A stretch of 53,644 nt of DNA, filler included, from Sphacelaria rigidula (taxonomy: Eukaryota): NCBI GenBank assembly GCA_964200075.2. It is 5 parts of 5 records of this genome, joined end to end, with 100 filler letters (N's around TTAATTAATTAA, not from the genome) between each part and the next. Parts side by side here need not be neighbours in the genome. Positions count along the whole stretch, not along the records: positions 21,501 to 32,149 come from CAXNAA020006147.1; 4 more parts are not named here. One strand, 5' to 3'. Positions within the stretch are counted from its first letter, which is position 1; every line of letters begins with the position of its first letter. The notes beneath the pieces are model-generated. The model was not told where the DNA came from and searched no databases. It was given only the letters and a program-made list of their open reading frames with translations. Position numbers and translations under genes: made by a program. This document shows, in pieces, positions 10,651 to 53,420 of this stretch.

Positions 10651-10750
10651 NNNNNNNNNNNNNNNNNNNNNNNNNNNNNNNNNNNNNNNNNNNNTTAATT
10701 AATTAANNNNNNNNNNNNNNNNNNNNNNNNNNNNNNNNNNNNNNNNNNNN
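10651..10750. other. Artificial contig linker N44-TTAATTAATTAA-N44
   Basis: Identical 100-bp spacer carrying a six-frame stop 12-mer; recurs four times in the window. Confidence 0.97.
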
Positions 10751-27716: not shown

Positions 27717-28129
27717 TATATATATATATATATGAATACAGTGCATGTAGTGCGCTTTTTTTGCTGGCTGCTGATGATGGTGAGTGTACGCTTTGAGGGA
27801 AACTACGGAGAAGGGGTGCACTGCCGGCTGTATCTGTAGCTGTCTGCACTGACGCTTATTGCACTTGCGTGCATGTACAAGCAGAGAGATCAACCATGCG
27901 TGCCATTCCCGGATCTCTCAAGGGCGCGTAGGACTAGCAATCCCCCATATGGGCGGGAGTATAGTACAGAATACGGAAAAACGTAAAGCATACCTGCATG
28001 AAAAAAAAACTTCAGCTCGAAATCGGCAGCGTACGTATGGGTATCCAGTACCAGAAAGGTTGATTCGTGAGTGGTGAACCAGGCAGGATGGATGTTTTCT
28101 GCAACCAACCCTTCGTTATTTTTTCATTT

Positions 28130-28442
28130 TTTGTTTTTGTCGCACTTTGAACCCCTCCCGTTCGGGACGAGTCCGTGGTCTCAAGGGATCAACCCATCTC
28201 GGCCCGGCACACGCCTTGCATTTTGGTCTCGCGGATTGGATCATGACCAACACTCCCGCACCGCGTCAACTCACGTCAAACAAACTCTGTGGACTACTTC
28301 GTTTGCTCACTTTCTCACGCTTTTTACGGTGAAAACACGCACACACTACGAAGAAAAAAACACACACACACACCAGGAATCGAACACTTGCTCTCTCCAC
28401 CGTAATGGCGACAGTCGGACCATTATACCACCGGGGCGCGGC
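28130..28442 (-). mobile_element. tRNA-derived SINE (family A)
   Basis: Reverse complement begins ccgcgccccggtggtataatggtccgactgtcgccattacggtggagagagcaagtgttcgattcc, closely matching the head at 42772-42840. Confidence 0.8.
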
Positions 28443-28891
28443 GGCAGGTGCAACGAGTGTAAGTAACAGAGGATCGAGCAACGCAGCAGGGAGCATCGCA
28501 CAACAACCAGGGTTCGAATATACCACAAAGTATGCGCTTCAAAACACGAGAGAAACGCACGTTCATCTTTTTTTGTTTTTTCTTACCAGTCCGTGCCCAT
28601 CGGCAAACTGTTGTACATTTCATTTTCACAGGTATCACGCCCGCAGCGAACCCAATCCACACACAAAAGGCACCCTTCTCACAATACGTGTGTTCAATGT
28701 CTTCTGGCAACCCATGTTTTTTGTCGGCTTTTTTTTTCTTCTTTCTTGTATATGCTCTTCAATACCACCGTCCATGATCTCCGTATATTTATCTTGCCTT
28801 CCTGATCGCGTCACCTCTATCTCCATCTACTAATATTCTTCATTTCGACGTATGTGTTTTATGTGGGCGCACGCAAATAAAATGTGTACAG

Positions 28892-29047
28892 AACCCGTCG
28901 GCAGCGATGACCCGGGGAGCACTGGACATGGCAAAGGGAGAAATTATCTCTTTGATGGAATTTGACGGTTACCTGCGGTATGTAGACATGATCGTTATCC
29001 AGCGGCAGCTCCGAATATCCAAGGACGTGGCACTGTGGTGGAAACAG
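28892..29047 (+). CDS. Internal exon encoding an RGS-domain-like C-terminus
   Basis: tacag|AAC...CAG|gtgcgt, 156 bp, phase 0-0. NPSAAMTRGALDMAKGEIISLMEFDGYLRYVDMIVIQRQLRISKDVALWWKQ resembles the RGS consensus FDxAQxEIxxLMExDSYxRF. Confidence 0.65.
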
Positions 29048-29369
29048 GTGCGTGCGTATGTGTGTGTGTGTGTGTGTGTGTTGGTGGATTCTCCCGTTTG
29101 GACAGCGAAGTTTGCGGCGTCTCTACTGTAAGGCTGTATATGCGTACATCGAGCCCAAGCCACGAGAATACCCACTAGCATCGGTGGACTTTACGTGGAG
29201 TCTGAACGCTCTGCAGTCGAAGGGCCAGAACCTCGAGAGCAGGAATGATTCGGTACTCATCCCTTGGGTTTGTGCTGCAGGTGACGGGGGTGGAGCGGGG
29301 AGAGGATGCATTAGAGCTCATCAAATGGGTGTGGGGTGTGGAGCTCCTTGTGTGTGTGTGCGCGCGGGG

Positions 29370-29500
29370 GGGGATGGAGGAGGATGTAGATGCACAGAAT
29401 ATCCCCTGTGGCAGAGGAACAGAAAGTACGACACAAAGAGCGGAAGAAGGTGAACTATGGAAAGAGGAACGGGATGTGCTGGAGGAGAAAATGTAGGAAA
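29370..29500 (+). mobile_element. LINE ORF2 C-terminal fragment (degenerate)
   Basis: EEDVDAQNIPCGRGTESTTQRAEEGELWKEERDVLEEKM looks like a decayed CxC...ESxxH..xEC zinc-knuckle region; it appears to continue at 30270-30425. Confidence 0.55.
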
Positions 29501-30269
29501 GAAAAAGGTGGCGTGAAATGGTTTGATACATGAGACAGGAGCGAATAATGATGCCATAATTCAGTAGTTTGTCATTTTTTCGTAGTCGGCGGCTTCCAAA
29601 AGTGTTTTTGCGTGCCACCACTTCTTCTAGTGAACGTTTCATCCCAAAGCTTGGGGATCGGGAAACACTAGGCATCCGCTCCACATTCCGAGACAACATT
29701 ACCTCTGCACTCAATATTGAACAACTTACGGGGGTCCTGCGACTGCCCAGCCTCAGGCCCTGACCCTTCGCAATTTTCGCTCGATTGAAACAATTCTGAT
29801 CGTTCTCGCGAACAAATGAAGAGGAACGTTTTTTTAACCCCCACTTCTATGCGGCGCTAGACCCAAAAAACTGTGACTTTCGGACCATCGAAGGTCGATA
29901 ACATTCCCTGATAGTCGAAGTACTCATTTCGTGTTCACCTGACAACACCAATGGGGGATTGTGTCCTGAGTACGACCTGCTTCTTTGCTCAAGATCTATC
30001 GCCGCTAGAACTTTCGAGTGTAAAGGAAAAATACTATGCGAGAAAACTCAGAAACGTATCCACAAAGGAAAATTGCCCAACCGAACTCTGCATAGTACAG
30101 GGGAGGGGTCACACATCCCAATCGCTCTCATCAATAATTTCACAGACCCTTACATTTTATATATCTCTGTTTATTGCGCTAGAGTCGAAAAGAAATGTGT
30201 TATGGACCAAGAACGGACAATAACACCCCCTGTCAATTCAGCCCGTTAGTCGTTCAATATTGATCGCAG

Positions 30270-30425
30270 ATATATAGGAGATAGATGGTGACCACCAACG
30301 GTGAAACAGGAATGCGATAAAGTATGCAAAAGGTTCTCATGTAATGTATGGGAGAACTTAATGAGCGACCGAATGTTGGAGGTGCCTCTATCAGGAGTAG
30401 AAACGGTGCTCCGTCTCGAAAACTA
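30270..30425 (+). mobile_element. LINE ORF2 3' fragment (degenerate)
   Basis: IGDRW*PPTVKQECDKVCKRFSCNVW / NERPNVGGASIRSRNGAPSRK. The terminal gctccgtctcgaaa is identical to the start of the repeat at 32090 and to 135-150 (minus). Confidence 0.6.
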
Positions 30426-30776
30426 AGGCACGCAACAAATGCGCACGCCCCCCCTCCCCTAAACCTGTCCATTTTCGTTTCGGTGATGCTACTTTTGACG
30501 TCGTGGTACGCTGCGATATTTCGTTCCCTGAATTGAGCCATGGAGGCTAATTGCTTCATACCAGATGATTGTTATGGTGGCTGTGCCCGTCATTTGGTAG
30601 CCACGAAGCGCATGTGATGATGCCTATTCAAGGCCGAAAGAGGCACGCACAAAAGGCGTTACACAGATATGTTCGATCGTTTTTGTGTAAAGCTTGACCC
30701 TTCCCATCCCCTCCTTATACTCGCCCTGAAAAACCCGACGTGAACGCAACGAAAACATGCTGCGGGGATCAAGCAG

Positions 30777-30977
30777 GAGGGATTGACGTTACGGCAGTTC
30801 TTCACCTTCCCTTCCCCGATAAACGCCGTGGATAGCAAAATGCATAGCTTATGCTCGGCCATCCTGATCGTGGGCGCTGCGGCGCTGTCGTACCTTCACC
30901 ACTTCCACTGGTTATGGGTGCTCGTCGTGTGCGGCTTTGCGGCACGGACCTTGTGTGGCCCACGGCTGGACCCTCAG
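30777..30977 (+). CDS. Internal exon encoding a DUF4395-like membrane domain N-terminus
   Basis: aagcag|GAG...CAG|gtgcgt, 201 bp, phase 0-0. EGLTLRQFFTFPSPINAVDSKMHSLCSAILIVGAAALSYLHHFHWLWVLVVCGFAARTLCGPRLDPQ resembles the DUF4395 pattern FxFPNPVN...W....GFxARxLxGPxLxP, with two hydrophobic helices. Confidence 0.7.
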
Positions 30978-32089
30978 GTGCGTATGCAATTGAAGAAAGT
31001 AGGTATGATGGCTGGATGGATTAGCTGGTGGAGTGTCGGACATTGAGTCATTCGTTACGATCTTAGGTGTGGTCATGAGGTGAACGTACTCGAGATAGGT
31101 ACACGAAAACATTCGCTGAAGGGGGACGCTAGAAAAAGAGAAGTATTGAAAAAAAAGGAACAGAGAGGATCAAATCGAAAAAAATAACTGCGATTGAAAA
31201 GCCAACAAAAAATGAAGACAGGATAAAACAAGGGAGGGAGAGAGGGAGAGAAGGAAGGGTAAACGACAACAATCTTGCAGTACTCTCGTCAACAAGGAAA
31301 CGTGACAGCGAGAATGAGTAGAAGATCTGACGGGAAAGCAGGGGGATCTGAGGTCAAGGTCAAGATACCAAACACTCACAATGAAACTAGGTTGTGGAAG
31401 ATGGGCGTTGGCACCGGTTCAACGTGTCTCGGTGTTGACCGCTGCACATCCTGTTGTGGCCTGGTCGCGCGGACCCCATGCGCGCTTTCGGTGGATCCCG
31501 AGATCCAGTGTTGAAATGCTGTTGTCGAGAATAGCCACCAGCTGGATAGTTGGCCGTCAGGCTGCGAGCACATTGGCCTGTGATTTATCATGATGATACC
31601 GGTAGTCAAGCACAGTGGAGATTTCACCGTCGCAGATGCTGTGGGTCGCCAATCGGGCGTGATGGTACTGGTGTAGTCCAATTACTTCAAAATAGTACGC
31701 GGGTGAATCGCGCTCGTAGCGAGTGATTTCGACGGTGGTATACTTGGGCATCACCGAACTTGAGGGGATCGCACCCCTGTAGGAATTCCACTGTGTTGCG
31801 GTTGAAACGGCTGACTTGCGGGGAGCATTGCAAGTTGGGATTCAGTGAATGGAAACCTCAGAGGTGCGGAGAAGAGAAAAATTTACCAAAGTAAGCCGGC
31901 GTAGGTTTTCAGTATCGCACGTCGAAAGAAATCAGTCCGGTATACTATGCTGCGCGGATTGCCTTGAAAGGGTCGGTCAGTCACGAAAACAGCATGTCCA
32001 CGTTTCTTTCCTCACTAATACTTTTGCGCTGAACACTGGGAAGTTCCAAGAGGGTAATGCAGTGATAGTCCCCCCCCCCCTCCAAAATT

Positions 32090-32149
32090 GCTCCGTCTCG
32101 AAAGGGATGCGTGGTCAATGGTCAAATGACTAAGGCAAGCAACAAATGA
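32090..32149 (+). mobile_element. LINE 3' end fragment (APSRKGCVVNGQMTKASNK*)
   Basis: Matches 80-150 (minus) and 32341-32375 (minus); the contig ends inside the repeat. Confidence 0.65.
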
Positions 32150-32249
32150 NNNNNNNNNNNNNNNNNNNNNNNNNNNNNNNNNNNNNNNNNNNNTTAATTA
32201 ATTAANNNNNNNNNNNNNNNNNNNNNNNNNNNNNNNNNNNNNNNNNNNN
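32150..32249. other. Artificial contig linker
   Basis: N44-TTAATTAATTAA-N44. Confidence 0.97.
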
Positions 32250-32805
32250 GTCATCGCCAAGCGACGCCAACCCCATCGGGGGTCCGCCTCTACAAAGCCG
32301 GGACGGAGAACGCCGGAAGGGGTGGGGAGGGGGGGGGGCGTACTCATTTATTGCTTGCCTTAGTCGTTTGACCATTTCCGGCGGGGGGGGATGTACTCCT
32401 GATCATGCATCCCACAGCCATATGACCATTGACCTTGCATCCCTACAAGGCTGGGACGGAGCACGCTAGGTTTTCGCCGGATCATGCTCTCTGTAGAGGA
32501 TGTGTGTGTAATCATGATCATGCATGCCATGGTCATGATACCCTGTAGAGGGGGGGGGGGTGTATTCATCATCATGAATACCATAGTCATAATACCATGT
32601 AGAGGGGGGGTGTACTCATCATAATGCATGCCATAGACATCAGACCATTGACCTCCCATCCCTACCAAGCCGGGACGGAGCGCGCCAGGTTTCGCCGGAC
32701 TAGGCTCGCACTCAATCATCAAGTACGAAGCGCCGTGATGTGTTCGGCAAATCGCATGAAGGGCGAGCTGCATCCTGACAAGATTGTCCGGTCGGAGGCC
32801 TACTG
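32250..32805 (-). repeat. Stacked LINE-tail-related repeats with internal ~50-bp poly-G/ATC-rich units
   Basis: Repeated gggggggtgtactcatcat...gccat...accctgtagag units, and two copies of gaccattgacct..catcccta..aag..gggacggagc.cgc.aggtttcgccgga; homologous to 15195-15407. Confidence 0.75.
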
Positions 32806-33784
32806 ATTATCTTGCATTTGGATGACAGCCTCAAATGAGCTGTGCTTTATTCTCTGGTATCGCCACTTCCTGGGGAGGATGAGCTTATTGGAGGCTTATG
32901 GGTGCCTCACCATGTAGGGGGGGTGGGGGGGAAGCCAGACAAGGTATCAGGCACAAAAATGAAGAAAGGCAGGAATAATCAAGGTGTGCTCATTAGCTTG
33001 GAAGCCGTCGTCAGAAGGCCGTTGACCTCCCATTCCTGCAGTACACACCAGTCAACAGGGAATACACCACGAGATGACACCTCGGAACATGAGCACAATT
33101 ACAGATGGCGCGAAGATATGAACACCTTGGAACCAGGTACAAGCTGTGAAATATCCTGAGGCCGGTGCAATCTCGTGTACCAAGATACTTTCGATAAGAC
33201 TGAAAAAAACTTCAATTTGAACAAAGCTAATTATTCTTCCAATGATACTCCCACACTTTTCACGTCATGTTCGTGTACGTTTACCCCGCTGTAAAACCCC
33301 TCAAAACCTTCGCGATGGAAGGCTATATCTAGAGGGGGACGGAGAGATTCGTCAGCAAAAAAGTAAAAAAAAAGTCATTTTGGGTGTATATACTCATGAG
33401 TGTTCTTCATATGAATAGCAAACTCCCTCTGGTTGTTCACAGCAATAATGCCTACGCCGCCGCGTTCATATGGTCCCAGTGGTGCACCAACGCTGGTGTG
33501 ACCAGAGTTTTGGATCCGCGTGCAGAGAGTATGACTTCCATTCGCTGGTTTCGTTATAATCCAAGAATGTGAGAACGAGCTTTCAACGGAGAAAAACAAC
33601 GCTCACCAATTATTTCATGAGATCATGGCTGTTGACCGAAGCGCACGAGAAGTGAGCGCCACGGGATGAACGGCGTGATCCCTTGTCGAGAACTACACAC
33701 TCGCCCGTGGGGAGGGGGAGGCAGGGCTATGAAATTAAAAATAGGAAACACCTGCAATGCGCGAAATATTTGTTCTCATTCCTA

Positions 33785-39122
<5,338 letters not shown>

Positions 39123-41604
39123 CTGGGCATCACGCACGAAGATGATGACAGATTGTCATCATCATACAGTCAGGCGGGGTCAAAAAGTTGTTAATCGCGG
39201 CGGTGCAGTGGATCATCGACAACCACGCCAAGAGAAGGAGGAAAAAACGTCTGGGGTAGAAAATATATTGCACAGAACCACGTCGTGTCGCGAGTATGGA
39301 CGCAGGTAGCATGCCATGGTTCGTGAAGGTTTCACATTTTTGACCGAACCCAGGTCATTCGGGTGGAGTGTGAAGAAATTCGTGTACAAAATTCGAGTGA
39401 CAAAAGTGCAAGTAGTCATGGAACGGTCCTCGTGTTCCGGGTATAATCGATCATGAGGGAGTATTTTGTACGAGTTGTGAAGATAAACAGGTTGTTAGTG
39501 ACGTTCCCAATACACCTTATTTGGAATACATAGGTGTGCCCAATGAGGCTACGTAGAGATAAATAGTACACAGATCGCCTATGGCAGACTGATACGAATA
39601 ACCCGGGTCATACAGATCATTCACCACTTCATGTGTGCAGAGCAACCGGGTTCTTCAGGTCACCAAACGGATACAGATCAATCGCAGATTGCAAAAGTCA
39701 TACGGCTGATTGTCGAGTAGGCGTGCGGGAGGTACCCGTGCTTCATCAACGCCAGCAGTGTACACGTTGACGGCTTTTTTCGAAAAAAAATCGTCAGAAG
39801 CTGGCCGAACCACGTCATGATGAGTCAATAGGGCATGTAGCTGTATCTTGTTTCTTCCTTTTCCCGCCGCGCATGAGTGTGCACCCTGACCGAGGGAATA
39901 CGAAAAGAGTCGTCCGTATTACCGCTGGCATGTGTGCGCTGTGCTCTTTCGGGACTATCCGAGGTCTGTCAAGGAAGAATTTCGAACACGGAGCCCCCCC
40001 GAGCGCCCACCCCCCGCCCGGAGGGCAGTTTTTTTTTTAAAAGTCATCATTATTTTTTTTGGTGATTTTATTGAATTTGTTAACAAACAACGACAAGACC
40101 GGAAAGTCTGGCAGGCTTTGCGAGGTTCGTATATTTGCTTCTACTCCTTGCCCGCCCTGTCGCGATGACCTCAGATCCCGGCAACGCTCACACACATCCA
40201 TGTACAATACACGAGCGCACGGTGGCCACAGCCTGTAACCAAGATAAAAACATTATCTCACGCCTCGCCAAATTTTGCCCGGACTGCTAGTAGTGGGTGG
40301 TCGAGGCACACGATACGGAAAATAATCCCATATATGTTATCATGGTAATTGATGAGCGTAGGGCGGTGTGACCGTCATCTCAGCGGTCTCCACGCCAAGG
40401 ATTTCTGTACACGGCAGCTGACTGCATCCGCCAACGCCTCGGCAATATACTAGGGAACAGGAGGCTGGCTGCCCCCCCCCTCCCCCCCCCTTCAAAAACT
40501 CGAATTTGATGTTGGGTTCTACATGTCCCGAAATATTTTTTGACAGACCATCATCATACGACACAAAAAACGTTACCCACGGGGTACCCAACCGTAGTAC
40601 TAGCCTAGCTCAACTTTTAGCGTGTAGCGAAATTTGTGACGCGACGATAGGTGCCCTGGAATAAATGTACCAAAGGTGCTCCCCGTATCTCGTACGGCGC
40701 GATTATCCAGTACAGGATCACCCGTACCCTTACGCTGGGCACACCAGTATTCACGTGTACGAGACGGCAAAAATGCCCACTGTAGTATCGCCAGTGCAAG
40801 GCAGCAAAATACCCAGTCTCGTTCAGAAAAAGGCGGCGAATCACCCAGTATCTCCAGTATCAGGTGGCGGAATACTACTAAGTTTACCGTATCAGCCCGA
40901 AATGAGTATATCGGTGTGACCTGGAGACTAACGTGGTGGCGCACGGGACCGCCGCTGAATGAAAAAAAAATGCGCTGCATGACGTATCACATAATTGACA
41001 GGAAAAAAAAAATCGTCTGGGATTCGAACTTGTGACCTCCATAACTTGAGTCAACTGCATTACTCGGACTAAATAAGCGCAGCCGTGCCAAACAAAAAGT
41101 TGGATGCTGCGCCAAAATTCCGTCATGTTTGGCTGAAGTTGTACCAGGATCTCCTCCACACAAGGACGCGCAACTACAATAGGGATGCCCCCGTATTCTT
41201 TATTTTCACGGAGTTTGGTTTTCCTTTCGTTTTCGCAGAAACTTCAAATCGCTTCAACTTCTTTTTTTTTCTTTGGCATCCCCAGGAAGGTTGTGCCTTG
41301 TGCCGATAAAAAAATTGTGTCGAAATTTCAGCGCCCAACACTTTGAATTACCGACCGCCCGGCCCGGATACATTCGCAAATCTCTGTCAGCTGGCCCAGC
41401 TCGTTTAGACAACCGTACCCTACAGAGCACAACGTTGGGATGTTCCACCCCCGAAAAGCCTTATCTCGGAACGATTCTGCGGACTGTCCAGATATATCCA
41501 GGGGTTTCGAGTGGAGGGCGGGGGGAATGATATGTGCTATTACGGGAGAGGGAGATGGACACTACAGCTACGGCATATTTTGTACTATTTATTTAATTTT
41601 TCTA

Positions 41605-41830
41605 TTTGTCACACTTGGAACTTCTCCTCTTCCTCGTGACGACTCCGTGGTCTCAAGGGATCAACCCATCTCTCCCCTGTACACGCCCTGCATTTCGGTC
41701 TCGTGGATTGGATCAGCACTCCCGCATCGCGTCAACTCACGCCCAACAAGCTCAGTCAGCTACTTCCTTTACTCACGTTCTCACGCTTTTCCGCGGTGGA
41801 AATCAGGCACCACGAAGAAAAACTCAACGC
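41605..41830 (-). mobile_element. SINE family A body, head missing
   Basis: gacgactccgtggtctcaagggatcaacccatctc...cactcccgcatcgcgtcaactcacg matches 28166-28275. Confidence 0.75.
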
Positions 41831-42771
41831 ATCGGCAATTAAACCCTCGTTATCTTTAATTTAATGGCGGCATCGATGACTGTGTTCCATTTCCAAGTTG
41901 CTCAGAAGCCTCGCTCTTGCTCCTCTGTAAAACTGCCCGGTATATATATACGATCTATCACGAATTTTATTTGCAGGTCTCAAAATAGAAGCTGCTTACA
42001 ATATCTAGTTCTCACACGGAAACATGCTGCAACAAAAATCAAGACACAAAGCATTATATAATTTTACAGAGACATAATGTACCTTCAGGATCACCATCGT
42101 TTTTACTTCGCCAACCTCTCCCTAAGGAGACTGTGATTCGAACCCTGCCTTGTTTCAGTGCGCTCTCGTACTTGACCATTATCCAGCCCACCCCACCTAG
42201 ATCGGCCAAAACCATCCATGATCATATTTTTGTGCACTTTTGTATTTTTTCCAAGTAGCACAACACACCCATCTTTCTGACCAGGTCGATACTGACTGCT
42301 TGTTTGGAAATGAGTACCCGAGGATCTCTGACGGCTGTGCGCTTTGGTACGCTGAGTAGGCCGTACATGCTGTCATGCGCGCTCAAGTGGTGCATGCTAG
42401 CTGCCACTACTGCTGCGATGTACTCAAGCGACATATTCTCCACCTTGCTTCAGCAGCCTCGGCACTTTGAAGGCGATGCTGGCACACCTCGTGCATATAT
42501 TAATAACGCTGCGTGTCATATCATCTCGACTGCACTCCCATCAGAGCGAAGCGATGCTGCAGGGCGTAGACGGAATTTCTTCTTACCAGCACAACCGAGT
42601 AGTATACGGTGCACTTGTTTTCGTTTGCACACACGAGACCTTTTGGTCGCTGTTGTTGCTCGCTGTTTAGCTGTCAACAAAAAGTGAACTGCTCTGCCCG
42701 CACTGTACTTACTGTCTATAGGGACCTTTAGACAACCGTAATGCACTTAATGATATTGTACATTTGTACAA

Positions 42772-42897
42772 CTCCGCGCCCCGGTGGTGTAATGGCCCGA
42801 CTGTCGCCACTATGGTGTAGAGGACGGGGGTTCAATTCCCGACGCGTTGGGTTTTTTCTTCGTGATGTATGATTTCCACCGTGGAAAGCGTGAGAAC
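42772..42897 (+). mobile_element. tRNA-derived SINE family A head, cut by the contig end
   Basis: ctccgcgccccggtggtgtaatggcccgactgtcgccactatggtgtagaggacgggggttcaattccc, with A-box and B-box-like motifs. Confidence 0.75.
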
Positions 42898-42997
42898 NNN
42901 NNNNNNNNNNNNNNNNNNNNNNNNNNNNNNNNNNNNNNNNNTTAATTAATTAANNNNNNNNNNNNNNNNNNNNNNNNNNNNNNNNNNNNNNNNNNNN
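42898..42997. other. Artificial contig linker
   Basis: N44-TTAATTAATTAA-N44. Confidence 0.97.
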
Positions 42998-51565: not shown

Positions 51566-53233
51566 GACTACGAGTGAAGGCGGGACCTAAGCTCGTGCGT
51601 ATAACGCACTAGTCGTTAGAATGGTTGTCGGAACGTTCTAGGGGATTCACGAAATCGAACTAACGCTAATGTTGACCCTATCCCCAACCGAAGGCACACG
51701 ATAACCCTCGGGTAAGGAGGGTGCGAAGGGTGCTCTGGACAACATTTGCGTTGAACCTCAAATCGGCCCCGCGGGACAAGAATGCGTTGTGAGTAAGCAG
51801 CAAATACTCGGGACTGTAGGCCCCTTTAACATTGTCATTCCTTTTCAAAAGTATGGAAGCGGTAATCTGGGAGAGTAGATGCCCCACAGCGCACCAGGCG
51901 TGTGTGTGTAGGTATCGGTGCAGAAGCACCGGCGACCTAGGCGTTTTGTGAGCATGATACAGGAACTCCTTTCGGATGATATCTCACTTTGTAATAACAA
52001 TTGCAGAGGGAAACGATATCAAATTGACGCAAAGGCGATGGCAAATATTGCGAGGTTGGTCGTTTAGGTCGGCCGCTTATCGGTCGACGCTGGTAGTATC
52101 ACAGATATAAACCATCACTCAGGATTCCTTACATCTTTGCGGTTGTTGCCTTTGAGGTCCACACGCCGTCTGACGCAATACGCGGCCCTACAGCCTACCT
52201 GAAAAGAGCAGTGTCTTACCAAGGCCCACTGTGCTGTGCAGCTGTTCGGGGAGGGACAACGTCACCTTTCAGACAGTACCAGACTTCACAAGCCAGACAC
52301 CACGACAGTCTGACGACGACGAGGGTGGTCGCCGTTGTCTTCTGTCAGAATCAACGGTCAATTATTGTGAAAGATGCTCCCACGTGAATATCTTGAGCTT
52401 TCCCCGACAGTCCTGTATTAGGCCTTTTGCAGAGTTTAGTACCATTTCAAATAATTTCAGAATAAGAGAGCAGGTTGAAATTTCCCCCTATGGGTTGTGG
52501 GTATTGCAGCCCTGCCGCAGCGTGATTCGCGTCGTACAGTTTCTACAGTACTTGTTGTGTATTCCTGGGCCGCGGTATATCTGATGTTTTAAACGCTTCC
52601 TCCCTCCGCAGCGATGTCGATCCCTTGCCATCCGGGCATCTCAGCCTGTGAGGTTGTCTGTGCCGCCACTTTCCCGTGCTGATGTAGGCACATCTCTTTC
52701 AAGGGCGTGTACCTCTTTACCACCAGCACATTCAATTTTCACCCCCGTGTCAGGAATGAAAAGTTTTTTAAACGCCTCCATACTAGTGAAAAGGAACAAC
52801 AGTGACGATCCAAAAATCGGTGTTTACTCCACAATCAATCTGAAAGCCATTTTCGGGAAAAATGCGTCAGTTCTTCTGGGGGCTGACCACCTTACACTAG
52901 TAGACATGACGCATTGGTCGTGAAACATGGTTGATTTGGTTGATTGCGTGATCTTAGAGAGAACACCGATATTCGGATCTTATAGAGGGGCTGACAGTCC
53001 CAATAACTAGCTTGCTCATAATGTGTTTTTGTCCAAATCGACGTCTGCGGCGCCGATTCGGGGTATGCCAACGCTCGATTGGCCTAAAGTAACCTTTGCA
53101 CCCCACTCGCCTGAGGGTCCTCGTATACCTTGGTCGGGGTTTGGGTCAGGGTCAGGACCCTTCTTAACGAAGGGTATTTTCCCCTTTTCCAAAATTCTCT
53201 TTTTCAAAAACGACAGCTGATTGGTCGCTGCGA

Positions 53234-53271: not shown

Positions 53272-53420
53272 ACACCCACCACCCCCCCCCAAACACCACC
53301 NNNNNNNNNNTCTAAAGAAAAGATTTTTCCCTTTTTCCCTATTTTCCTTTTTTACAAACCAAACACGGTGGGGGCGGCGCCCCCCCCCCCCCCCCCCCCC
53401 CCCCTCCCCCCCGAAAAAAA
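53234..53420. other. Poly-C low-quality scaffold junction with a 10-N gap
   Basis: Long C homopolymers on both sides of N10 at 53301-53310. Confidence 0.8.

Follow-up and report, generated by a model that had tools for sequence, protein, structure and literature searches.

The DNA analyzed here (termed the window) is a stretch of 53,644 nucleotides (nt) of Sphacelaria rigidula (assembly GCA_964200075.2). It consists of five parts joined with 100 filler letters between them, and positions 21,501–32,149 come from record CAXNAA020006147.1. In this part are two open segments on the plus strand, termed exon A and exon B, that display similarity to proteins in which an RGS (regulator of G-protein signaling) domain is followed by DUF4395, a membrane domain of bacterial type. 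The locus is laid out as follows.

28892–29047, plus strand: exon A (exon 1), 156 nt, 52 codons; last RGS helices and a linker helix ending in an ALWW motif
29048–30776, plus strand: intron, 1729 nt, GT..AG, with stops in the exon frame
30777–30977, plus strand: exon B (exon 2), 201 nt, 67 codons; start of DUF4395
30978–30983, plus strand: donor site GTGCGT after exon B, read from the sequence

An AG stands immediately before each exon (at 28890–28891 and at 30775–30776), and GTGCGT is found directly 3′ of both, as checked with a script. The exon A translation is free of stops, the exon B peptide lies within an open frame at 30744–31046, and there are no stops or frameshifts in either exon. 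Exon B encodes an FFxFPxPxN motif, two hydrophobic helices and a GF-AR-LCGPRLDPQ loop. The intron shows a (GT)n run after its donor and a high-copy repeat at about 30376–30730. A preliminary description of this DNA had given two plus-strand exons with canonical splice sites and an in-frame join, and the sequence, its translation and the script check agree with it to the base. Exon A is presumed to be spliced to exon B in this organism.

The RGS–DUF4395 fusion family is defined in this analysis by a profile of 84 listed representatives, which was run on the 2670 stop-to-stop frames of at least 8 residues on both strands of the whole window. The exon B frame matches with an E-value of 2e-30 and the exon A frame with 4.7e-11 (profile positions 100–158); the third-best frame reaches only 0.22. 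When the two peptides are joined, the resulting 119 residues give a single match to the family profile (151.7 bits, E = 1.5e-48, positions 112–225) with no insertion and one gap, running colinearly from the end of RGS through the linker into DUF4395; at the exon junction itself the family alignment is gapless. In a BLASTP search of the joined peptide against the fetched proteins, 123 of the 146 hits cross the junction in one alignment. With tblastn, exon A is matched by 24 of 152 family proteins, the best being P0018 from Ectocarpus sp. 13 (1.1e-10, 44% identity), and exon B has 122 hits from the 152 (best 2e-28, 57% identity).

The Pfam models were also used on the two peptides, a check that the preliminary description had proposed. 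Exon A, which is confined to the final portion of RGS, has no match at E ≤ 10. For exon B, DUF4395 is matched over profile positions 9–48 of 130, with E = 0.024 and a score of 15.4 bits (cut-off 24.5). That neither exon alone reaches a Pfam gathering score is what can be said for chance open frames in non-coding DNA. Chance is refuted, however, by the family profile values of both frames, set against 0.22 for the next among all those scanned, and by that of the joined peptide, and is scarcely conceivable here. The RGS–DUF4395 fusion reading of the window exons holds only by way of the homologues.

A family member from Phaeothamnion (P0008) is used for numbering. Its residues 109–158 align to exon A, from inside its Pfam RGS envelope (22–137; 57.6 bits versus a 23.9 cut-off) into a long helix of its structural model (117–152). 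At family columns with at least 70% conservation the window is identical at 18 of 21, or at 17 of 20 after one column is dropped, an N placed at P0008 position 85 that is an alignment artefact. It departs at three columns, with Y for F, K for R and C for Y, the last at a column where 43 of 53 family members have Y. Exon B is identical at F166, F167, F169, P170, N174, G211, R215, G219, P220, R221, L222, D223 and P224, and both the N-terminal FxFPxPxN motif and the GF-AR-(C)GP-(L)DP loop of DUF4395 are present in it. Exon A has a D at position 130, as do 40 of 54 family members. This is the Asp of an Asp/Arg pair in the last RGS helices, presumed to be G-alpha contact residues. The window copy looks to be under constraint, because its splice sites are intact, it has no stops, and 17 of the 20 conserved positions are identical.

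Three open reading frame (ORF) calls from other assemblies (P0128, P0134 and P0139) continue past the DPQ boundary into V-R. This suggests that an intron is present at the same position after DPQ in these genes, with a GTG-CG donor. It can be asked whether exon A closes an RGS gene and exon B opens a small DUF4395 gene of its own, since DUF4395 stands alone in bacteria, some eukaryotic representatives show one domain only, and the exon A–B junction is not directly seen in reads. However, exon B is preceded by an acceptor and lacks an in-frame start upstream of FFxFPxPxN, and exon A runs into a donor instead of a stop. In addition, family members have the ALWW linker right next to the exon B motif, and the alignment of the joined peptide needs a single gap. 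Two genes are very unlikely, as are chance frames, because of the profile scores, the joined match, the BLASTP hits that cross the junction and the shared intron position. The reading preferred here is that exons A and B are consecutive internal exons of one gene of the RGS–DUF4395 family, with its other exons out of sight; the probability of this is put at roughly 0.6.

A search with exon B for longer proteins yielded P0002, a complete ORF of 386 amino acids (aa) from a transcriptome. Pfam shows RGS (2.2e-13) and then DUF4395 (1.6e-18) in P0002, and the sequence runs unbroken across the position of the exon junction in the window. An exhaustive profile search gave 1602 proteins at E ≤ 1e-3, 70 of them at E ≤ 1e-30. 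Both domains (E ≤ 1e-4) are found in 47 of the 97 cluster representatives scanned, with RGS always first, and 44 are above both Pfam gathering scores. A further 21 representatives display DUF4395 only (15), RGS only (5) or neither (1). An N-terminal RGS domain followed by DUF4395, as proposed in the preliminary description, is thus borne out as one protein family by P0002 and the 47 representatives.

Carriers among the ochrophytes include Tribonema minus (JKP88DRAFT_252508, P0003), Phaeothamnion confervicola (CAM9298781.1) and Chrysoparadoxa australica, and among the brown algae Ectocarpus sp. 13 (CAM9588363.1), Cladosiphon okamuranus (g19114.t1) and Choristocarpus tenellus. Fungal carriers are the chytrids Quaeritorhiza (Q. 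haematococci KAJ3090130.1), Gaertneriomyces and Powellomyces (P. hirtus TPX53718.1 / A0A507DRX9), and Geosiphon and Ambispora of the Glomeromycota. The family is also present in the chlorarachniophytes Amorphochlora and Lotharella and in the ichthyosporean Abeoforma.

The nearest named protein to the joined peptide is from Phaeothamnion, with 49.6% identity over 117 residues (BLASTP). Every named member is less than 50% identical over the two exons, so that a close relative is not on record. Searches with exon B for homologous proteins of near length, and a scan of metagenome contigs with exon B, gave none. The window gene is a diverged, apparently incomplete member of a widespread, uncharacterized family.

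The architecture was put forward in the preliminary description as possibly undescribed, but it is already in the databases under automatic names. The Tribonema and Powellomyces members are termed "RGS domain-containing protein" in NCBI and UniRef, and a 50-member cluster in the ESM Atlas is automatically named for both domains. In the literature, no paper was found on an RGS–DUF4395 fusion, and the papers that came up for DUF4395 (PF14340) are bacterial and unrelated. Literature on RGS in brown algae or Ectocarpus gave nothing on the fusion, the supplement of PMC3971589 being outside the search.

Some members of the family, or sequences related to it, show further peculiarities. P0010 (Geosiphon pyriformis KAG9285122.1), of 690 residues, displays RGS, DUF4395 and then a DUF1295/steroid-reductase-like segment (1e-47), and represents a fusion of three parts or else a merger of two gene models. 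The P0003 gene model (664 aa), compared with the 92%-identical P0002, contains several long insertions resembling retained introns. P0046, P0048, P0052, P0081, P0084, P0088 and similar sequences are 540–990 residues long; DUF4395 lies close to their C-terminus, and their long N-terminal region is unmatched in Pfam. DUF4395 may be fused to other modules of this kind as well.

The structure of P0008 was modeled with AlphaFold from a 54-sequence alignment (predicted local distance difference test, pLDDT, 94.3; predicted template-modeling score, pTM, 0.83). The first 150 residues superpose on structures of RGS8, RGS1, RGS4 and RGS16, including RGS4 and RGS8 bound to G-alpha. Against 1agr_H the template-modeling (TM) score by target is 0.86, with a root-mean-square deviation of 2.1 over 123 columns, and there are 37 matches at E ≤ 1e-3. 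The all-helical RGS fold is found in this relative by model; the window itself is missing most of the domain. In the model, the long helix joins RGS to the ALWW motif, and a helix bundle follows at positions 175–320. Of 51 family sequences, 49 have an Asn at P0008 position 85, presumably corresponding to the catalytic-interface Asn128 of RGS4; the exon that would encode it was not found in the window.

The motif columns of the family are GF-AR-CGPRLDPQ, P-x-R-F-A-Q and a CxxC at positions 300/303 (47 of 53 sequences). The CxxC is at the start of the last DUF4395 helix, and the consensus shows a second CxxC about 17 residues later in most members. In bacterial DUF4395 proteins four Cys are invariant in 10 of 10. 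A stand-alone bacterial DUF4395 was modeled as well (pLDDT 87.7), and no specific solved relative was detected with Foldseek against the PDB (best E = 1.6) or with VIA wide (best Z = 8.3), all hits being generic helical bundles. A PDB sequence search with DUF4395 gave a best E-value of 0.22, for a FYVE zinc finger over the cysteine tail, which is a lead only. Gene neighbors were inspected at 24 of 80 actinobacterial-type DUF4395 loci with crude ORF calls, and no partner was present at more than 2 of the 24; Sulfotransfer_4, UbiA and sigma-70 were found twice each and rhodanese once.

The window copy spans about 119 of roughly 320–390 residues, extending from the final helices of RGS through the second membrane helix. 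Undetected are about 110 residues at the front (the front of RGS) and at least about 100 at the back (the PGPPKRFAQ/CxxC half of DUF4395). A tblastn search of P0002 and of the 152 family proteins against the whole 53.6 kb gave no exon beyond A and B, and 4-sequence and 84-sequence profiles run on all 2670 frames matched only these two. Pfam showed no RGS and no further DUF4395 in 130 plus-strand frames at 18664–33912, and nothing at E ≤ 1e-3 in 106 long frames at 1–21167. Scanning for the PxRFAQ, FVxRP, PGPP and ENLxFW motifs revealed nothing credible. PGPPKRFAQ and CxxC were not found on the plus strand from 29000 to the window end, and there is no profile match for them either.

Three segments were considered as possible additional exons and rejected. 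Positions 16306–16389 (plus strand) score 1.6 bits (E = 17) and have no usable donor in phase. A CxxC-like frame at 52219–52344 (minus strand) is a weak candidate for the missing C-terminus (E = 0.22) and was taken as chance. A look-alike of the exon B end at 31458–31502 was also attributed to chance, its local DNA score of 11 being reached by 112 of 300 shuffles.

The statement in the preliminary description that both gene ends lie outside the recognizable sequence agrees with the tblastn, profile and Pfam results on the window. Its prediction of a downstream PPxRFAQ/CxxC region is correct for the family, where this region is conserved, and was not confirmed in the window, where it was not found. 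The remaining exons may lie outside the window or under a mask, may have been displaced by misassembly at a high-copy repeat, or may be lost.

The filler letters or masks (44 N + TTAATTAATTAA + 44 N) are at 10651–10750, 21401–21500, 32150–32249 and 42898–42997, and also at 53301–53310; they recur every 10750 nt. Around the mask at 32150–32249 is an inverted repeat pair (32117–32149 versus 32344–32376, 94% identity), which argues that the window is contiguous across this mask, with 100 nt withheld. If the parts are not adjacent, the absence of further exons would mean little.

Two larger features are adjacent to the exon pair.

About 21500–27500, plus strand: long terminal repeat (LTR) retroelement, directly upstream of exon A
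33782–39155, minus strand: aminotransferase class I/II gene, multi-exon, alanine-aminotransferase-like by eye (Pfam Aminotran_1_2, 6.8e-6, on the frame 37085–37345)

The LTR retroelement displays a gag zinc knuckle at 22198–22860 (zf-CCHC, 1.4e-7), Integrase_H2C2 within 23612–24364 (1.1e-11), and an rve core within 24312–25577 (1.5e-7, just below the cut-off). Pfam detected no reverse transcriptase on its frames. A joint from 21993 to 27176, skipping 5182 nt, is present in all four sequencing runs compared. One of these is DNA-like, and therefore an LTR form without the internal part exists as DNA somewhere. The last exon of the aminotransferase-like gene was not located. Between exon B and this gene are an extreme-copy repeat (31796–32149), the mask at 32150–32249 and low-complexity repeats.

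The extreme-copy repeat belongs to a short repeat family of extreme abundance, found at 31796–32149, 30376–30730, 93–165 and 32319–32376. In run X1 its contig depths sum to about 1.7 million, versus about 60–100 in single-copy bins. Many contigs fold back at 32149/32090, showing that the repeat is often an inverted pair. A second dispersed repeat, with copies 77%–85% identical, is located at 28071–28463 (just upstream of exon A) and, 13 kb downstream, at about 41777–41850 and about 42774–42896.

Contigs from runs X6, X9 and X10 provide possible traces of transcripts. It should be noted that these runs are taken as RNA by guess and are not on record as RNA, which makes them weak evidence. The bin with the exon A start is covered by contigs of all three, and the bin with exon B by contigs of X9 and X10. 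The single-copy bins 26116–26825, 29311–29665 and 31086–31795 have no cover in X6, X9 or X10. In one 228-letter contig of X10, 104 letters fit positions 28889–28992 and leave the locus within 3 nt of the exon A acceptor; the remaining 124 letters lie elsewhere.

Several points weigh against the reading that exons A and B belong to one gene with further exons out of sight. No other exon is detectable on either strand in 53.6 kb. Divergence is a poor excuse for the missing C-terminal half, because that half holds the best-conserved motifs of the family. The convergent aminotransferase-like gene leaves less than 3 kb downstream, much of it repeats, and directly upstream of exon A there is an LTR retroelement. 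Neither exon is called by Pfam alone, and the joint from 29047 to 30777 is not among the 15 joints listed (116 further ones are unlisted). GTPase-activating (GAP) activity, membrane topology and the role of the cysteines in family members are each predicted only.

An alternative is a truncated relic or a transposon-captured fragment, consisting of the two exons and their intron between repeats. A transcript of such a fragment would be non-functional or chimeric, and the intact copy, if any, would be elsewhere. The absence of further family exons in spite of very conserved downstream motifs, the repeats on both sides (28071–28463 and 31796–32149), the upstream retroelement and the little room left by the convergent neighbor all point in this direction, as does the Y-to-C change at a column otherwise mostly Y. 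A relic does not readily account for two open exons whose canonical splice sites are intact and which keep 17 of 20 conserved positions, nor for contigs of the presumed RNA runs on both exons, one of which ends at the exon A acceptor in the manner of a spliced transcript. In addition, a continuation of the gene could be hidden by a misjoin at the high-copy repeat or by the 100-nt mask at 32150–32249. A relic or captured fragment is regarded as a possible, though not a probable, origin of the pair, and the preferred reading continues to be that of two consecutive internal exons of one family gene.

RGS domains speed the hydrolysis of GTP on G-alpha subunits, and membrane-attached RGS proteins set the duration of G-protein signals. 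A full-length member of the family would have a cytosolic N-terminal RGS domain, a long helix with ALWW, and DUF4395 as a C-terminal helical membrane domain. It would act as a membrane-tethered GTPase activator of G-alpha, with DUF4395 keeping RGS at the membrane, the location of G-alpha; control by a metal or by redox state may be added through the cysteine site. GAP activity on G-alpha is the natural reading of the modeled fold, in view of established knowledge of RGS, the fold itself and the conservation of residues at the interface. If the helix bundle has an even number of passes, the cysteine site would be on the cytosolic side together with RGS. The setting of the window copy would be an ochrophyte-type alga with long, repeat-filled introns.

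A more far-reaching proposal is that the family represents an ancient, pan-eukaryotic, receptor-like RGS, in which the bacterial-type four-cysteine membrane module senses a metal, redox or sulfur-related signal and gates RGS, and which is possibly the ancestor of the fungal Rax1 group. This is considered unlikely; it is left standing because the cysteines are kept from bacteria to eukaryotes, the fusion is found in four eukaryotic groups, and nothing is in print. If true, it would provide an input into heterotrimeric G-protein signaling that does not depend on G-protein-coupled receptors (GPCRs), comparable to AtRGS1 of plants in its logic. The GPCR logic of animals is replaced in plants by a membrane-receptor RGS.

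In ochrophyte algae, chlorarachniophytes, early-diverging fungi and an ichthyosporean, what is fused behind RGS is DUF4395, a second membrane module and a small one. The family is a reasonable target for work on G-protein signaling in brown algae or chytrids, and provides a first functional handle for DUF4395. The window itself is of modest value: it has a diverged, apparently incomplete copy, at a locus flagged as broken, in the assembly or in the gene, at a high-copy repeat.

The preliminary description had set the order of RGS before the membrane part apart from that of familiar membrane RGS proteins, but this order is not a novelty. According to PMC3248559, yeast Rax1 and Magnaporthe MoRgs6 carry RGS at the N-terminus plus three transmembrane motifs at the C-terminus, and MoRgs3 has the domain architecture of Rax1. 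The Rax1/RgsB/MoRgs3/MoRgs6 type shares with the present family RGS followed by C-terminal transmembrane segments. It differs in being described with three transmembrane motifs that are not assigned to a named membrane domain. Chytrids and Glomeromycota carry the DUF4395 version of the RGS-first order. More generally, RGS joined to at least one transmembrane segment occurs in most eukaryotic lineages, according to PMC3971589.

In the plant-type seven-transmembrane (7TM) RGS proteins (AtRGS1) and other 7TM-RGS proteins, RGS is likewise anchored by an integral membrane part belonging to the same chain. Their membrane part, however, has seven helices, is receptor-like and is N-terminal, whereas the RGS–DUF4395 proteins have a small bacterial-type helical domain at the C-terminus. 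In 47 of 47 two-domain relatives RGS comes before the membrane domain, and exon A precedes exon B in the window; the AtRGS1-type order was not found.

Stand-alone bacterial DUF4395 proteins (PF14340) share with the family the FxFPxPVN motif, the GF-ARV-GP loop, the PGPPKRFAQ motif and the cysteine pairs, but are about 170 residues long and have no RGS domain. The R4-type animal proteins RGS4, RGS8, RGS1 and RGS16 superpose with the P0008 model (TM by target 0.75–0.87) at 22%–29% identity. Unlike these, the family is without an amphipathic N-terminal helix or palmitoylation region and would be attached by way of the fused membrane domain. The closest comparison is with the known RGS–DUF4395 proteins themselves. 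These are colinear with the window over both exons and have the ALWW linker, the FFxFPxPxN motif and GF-AR-CGPRLDPQ in common with it.

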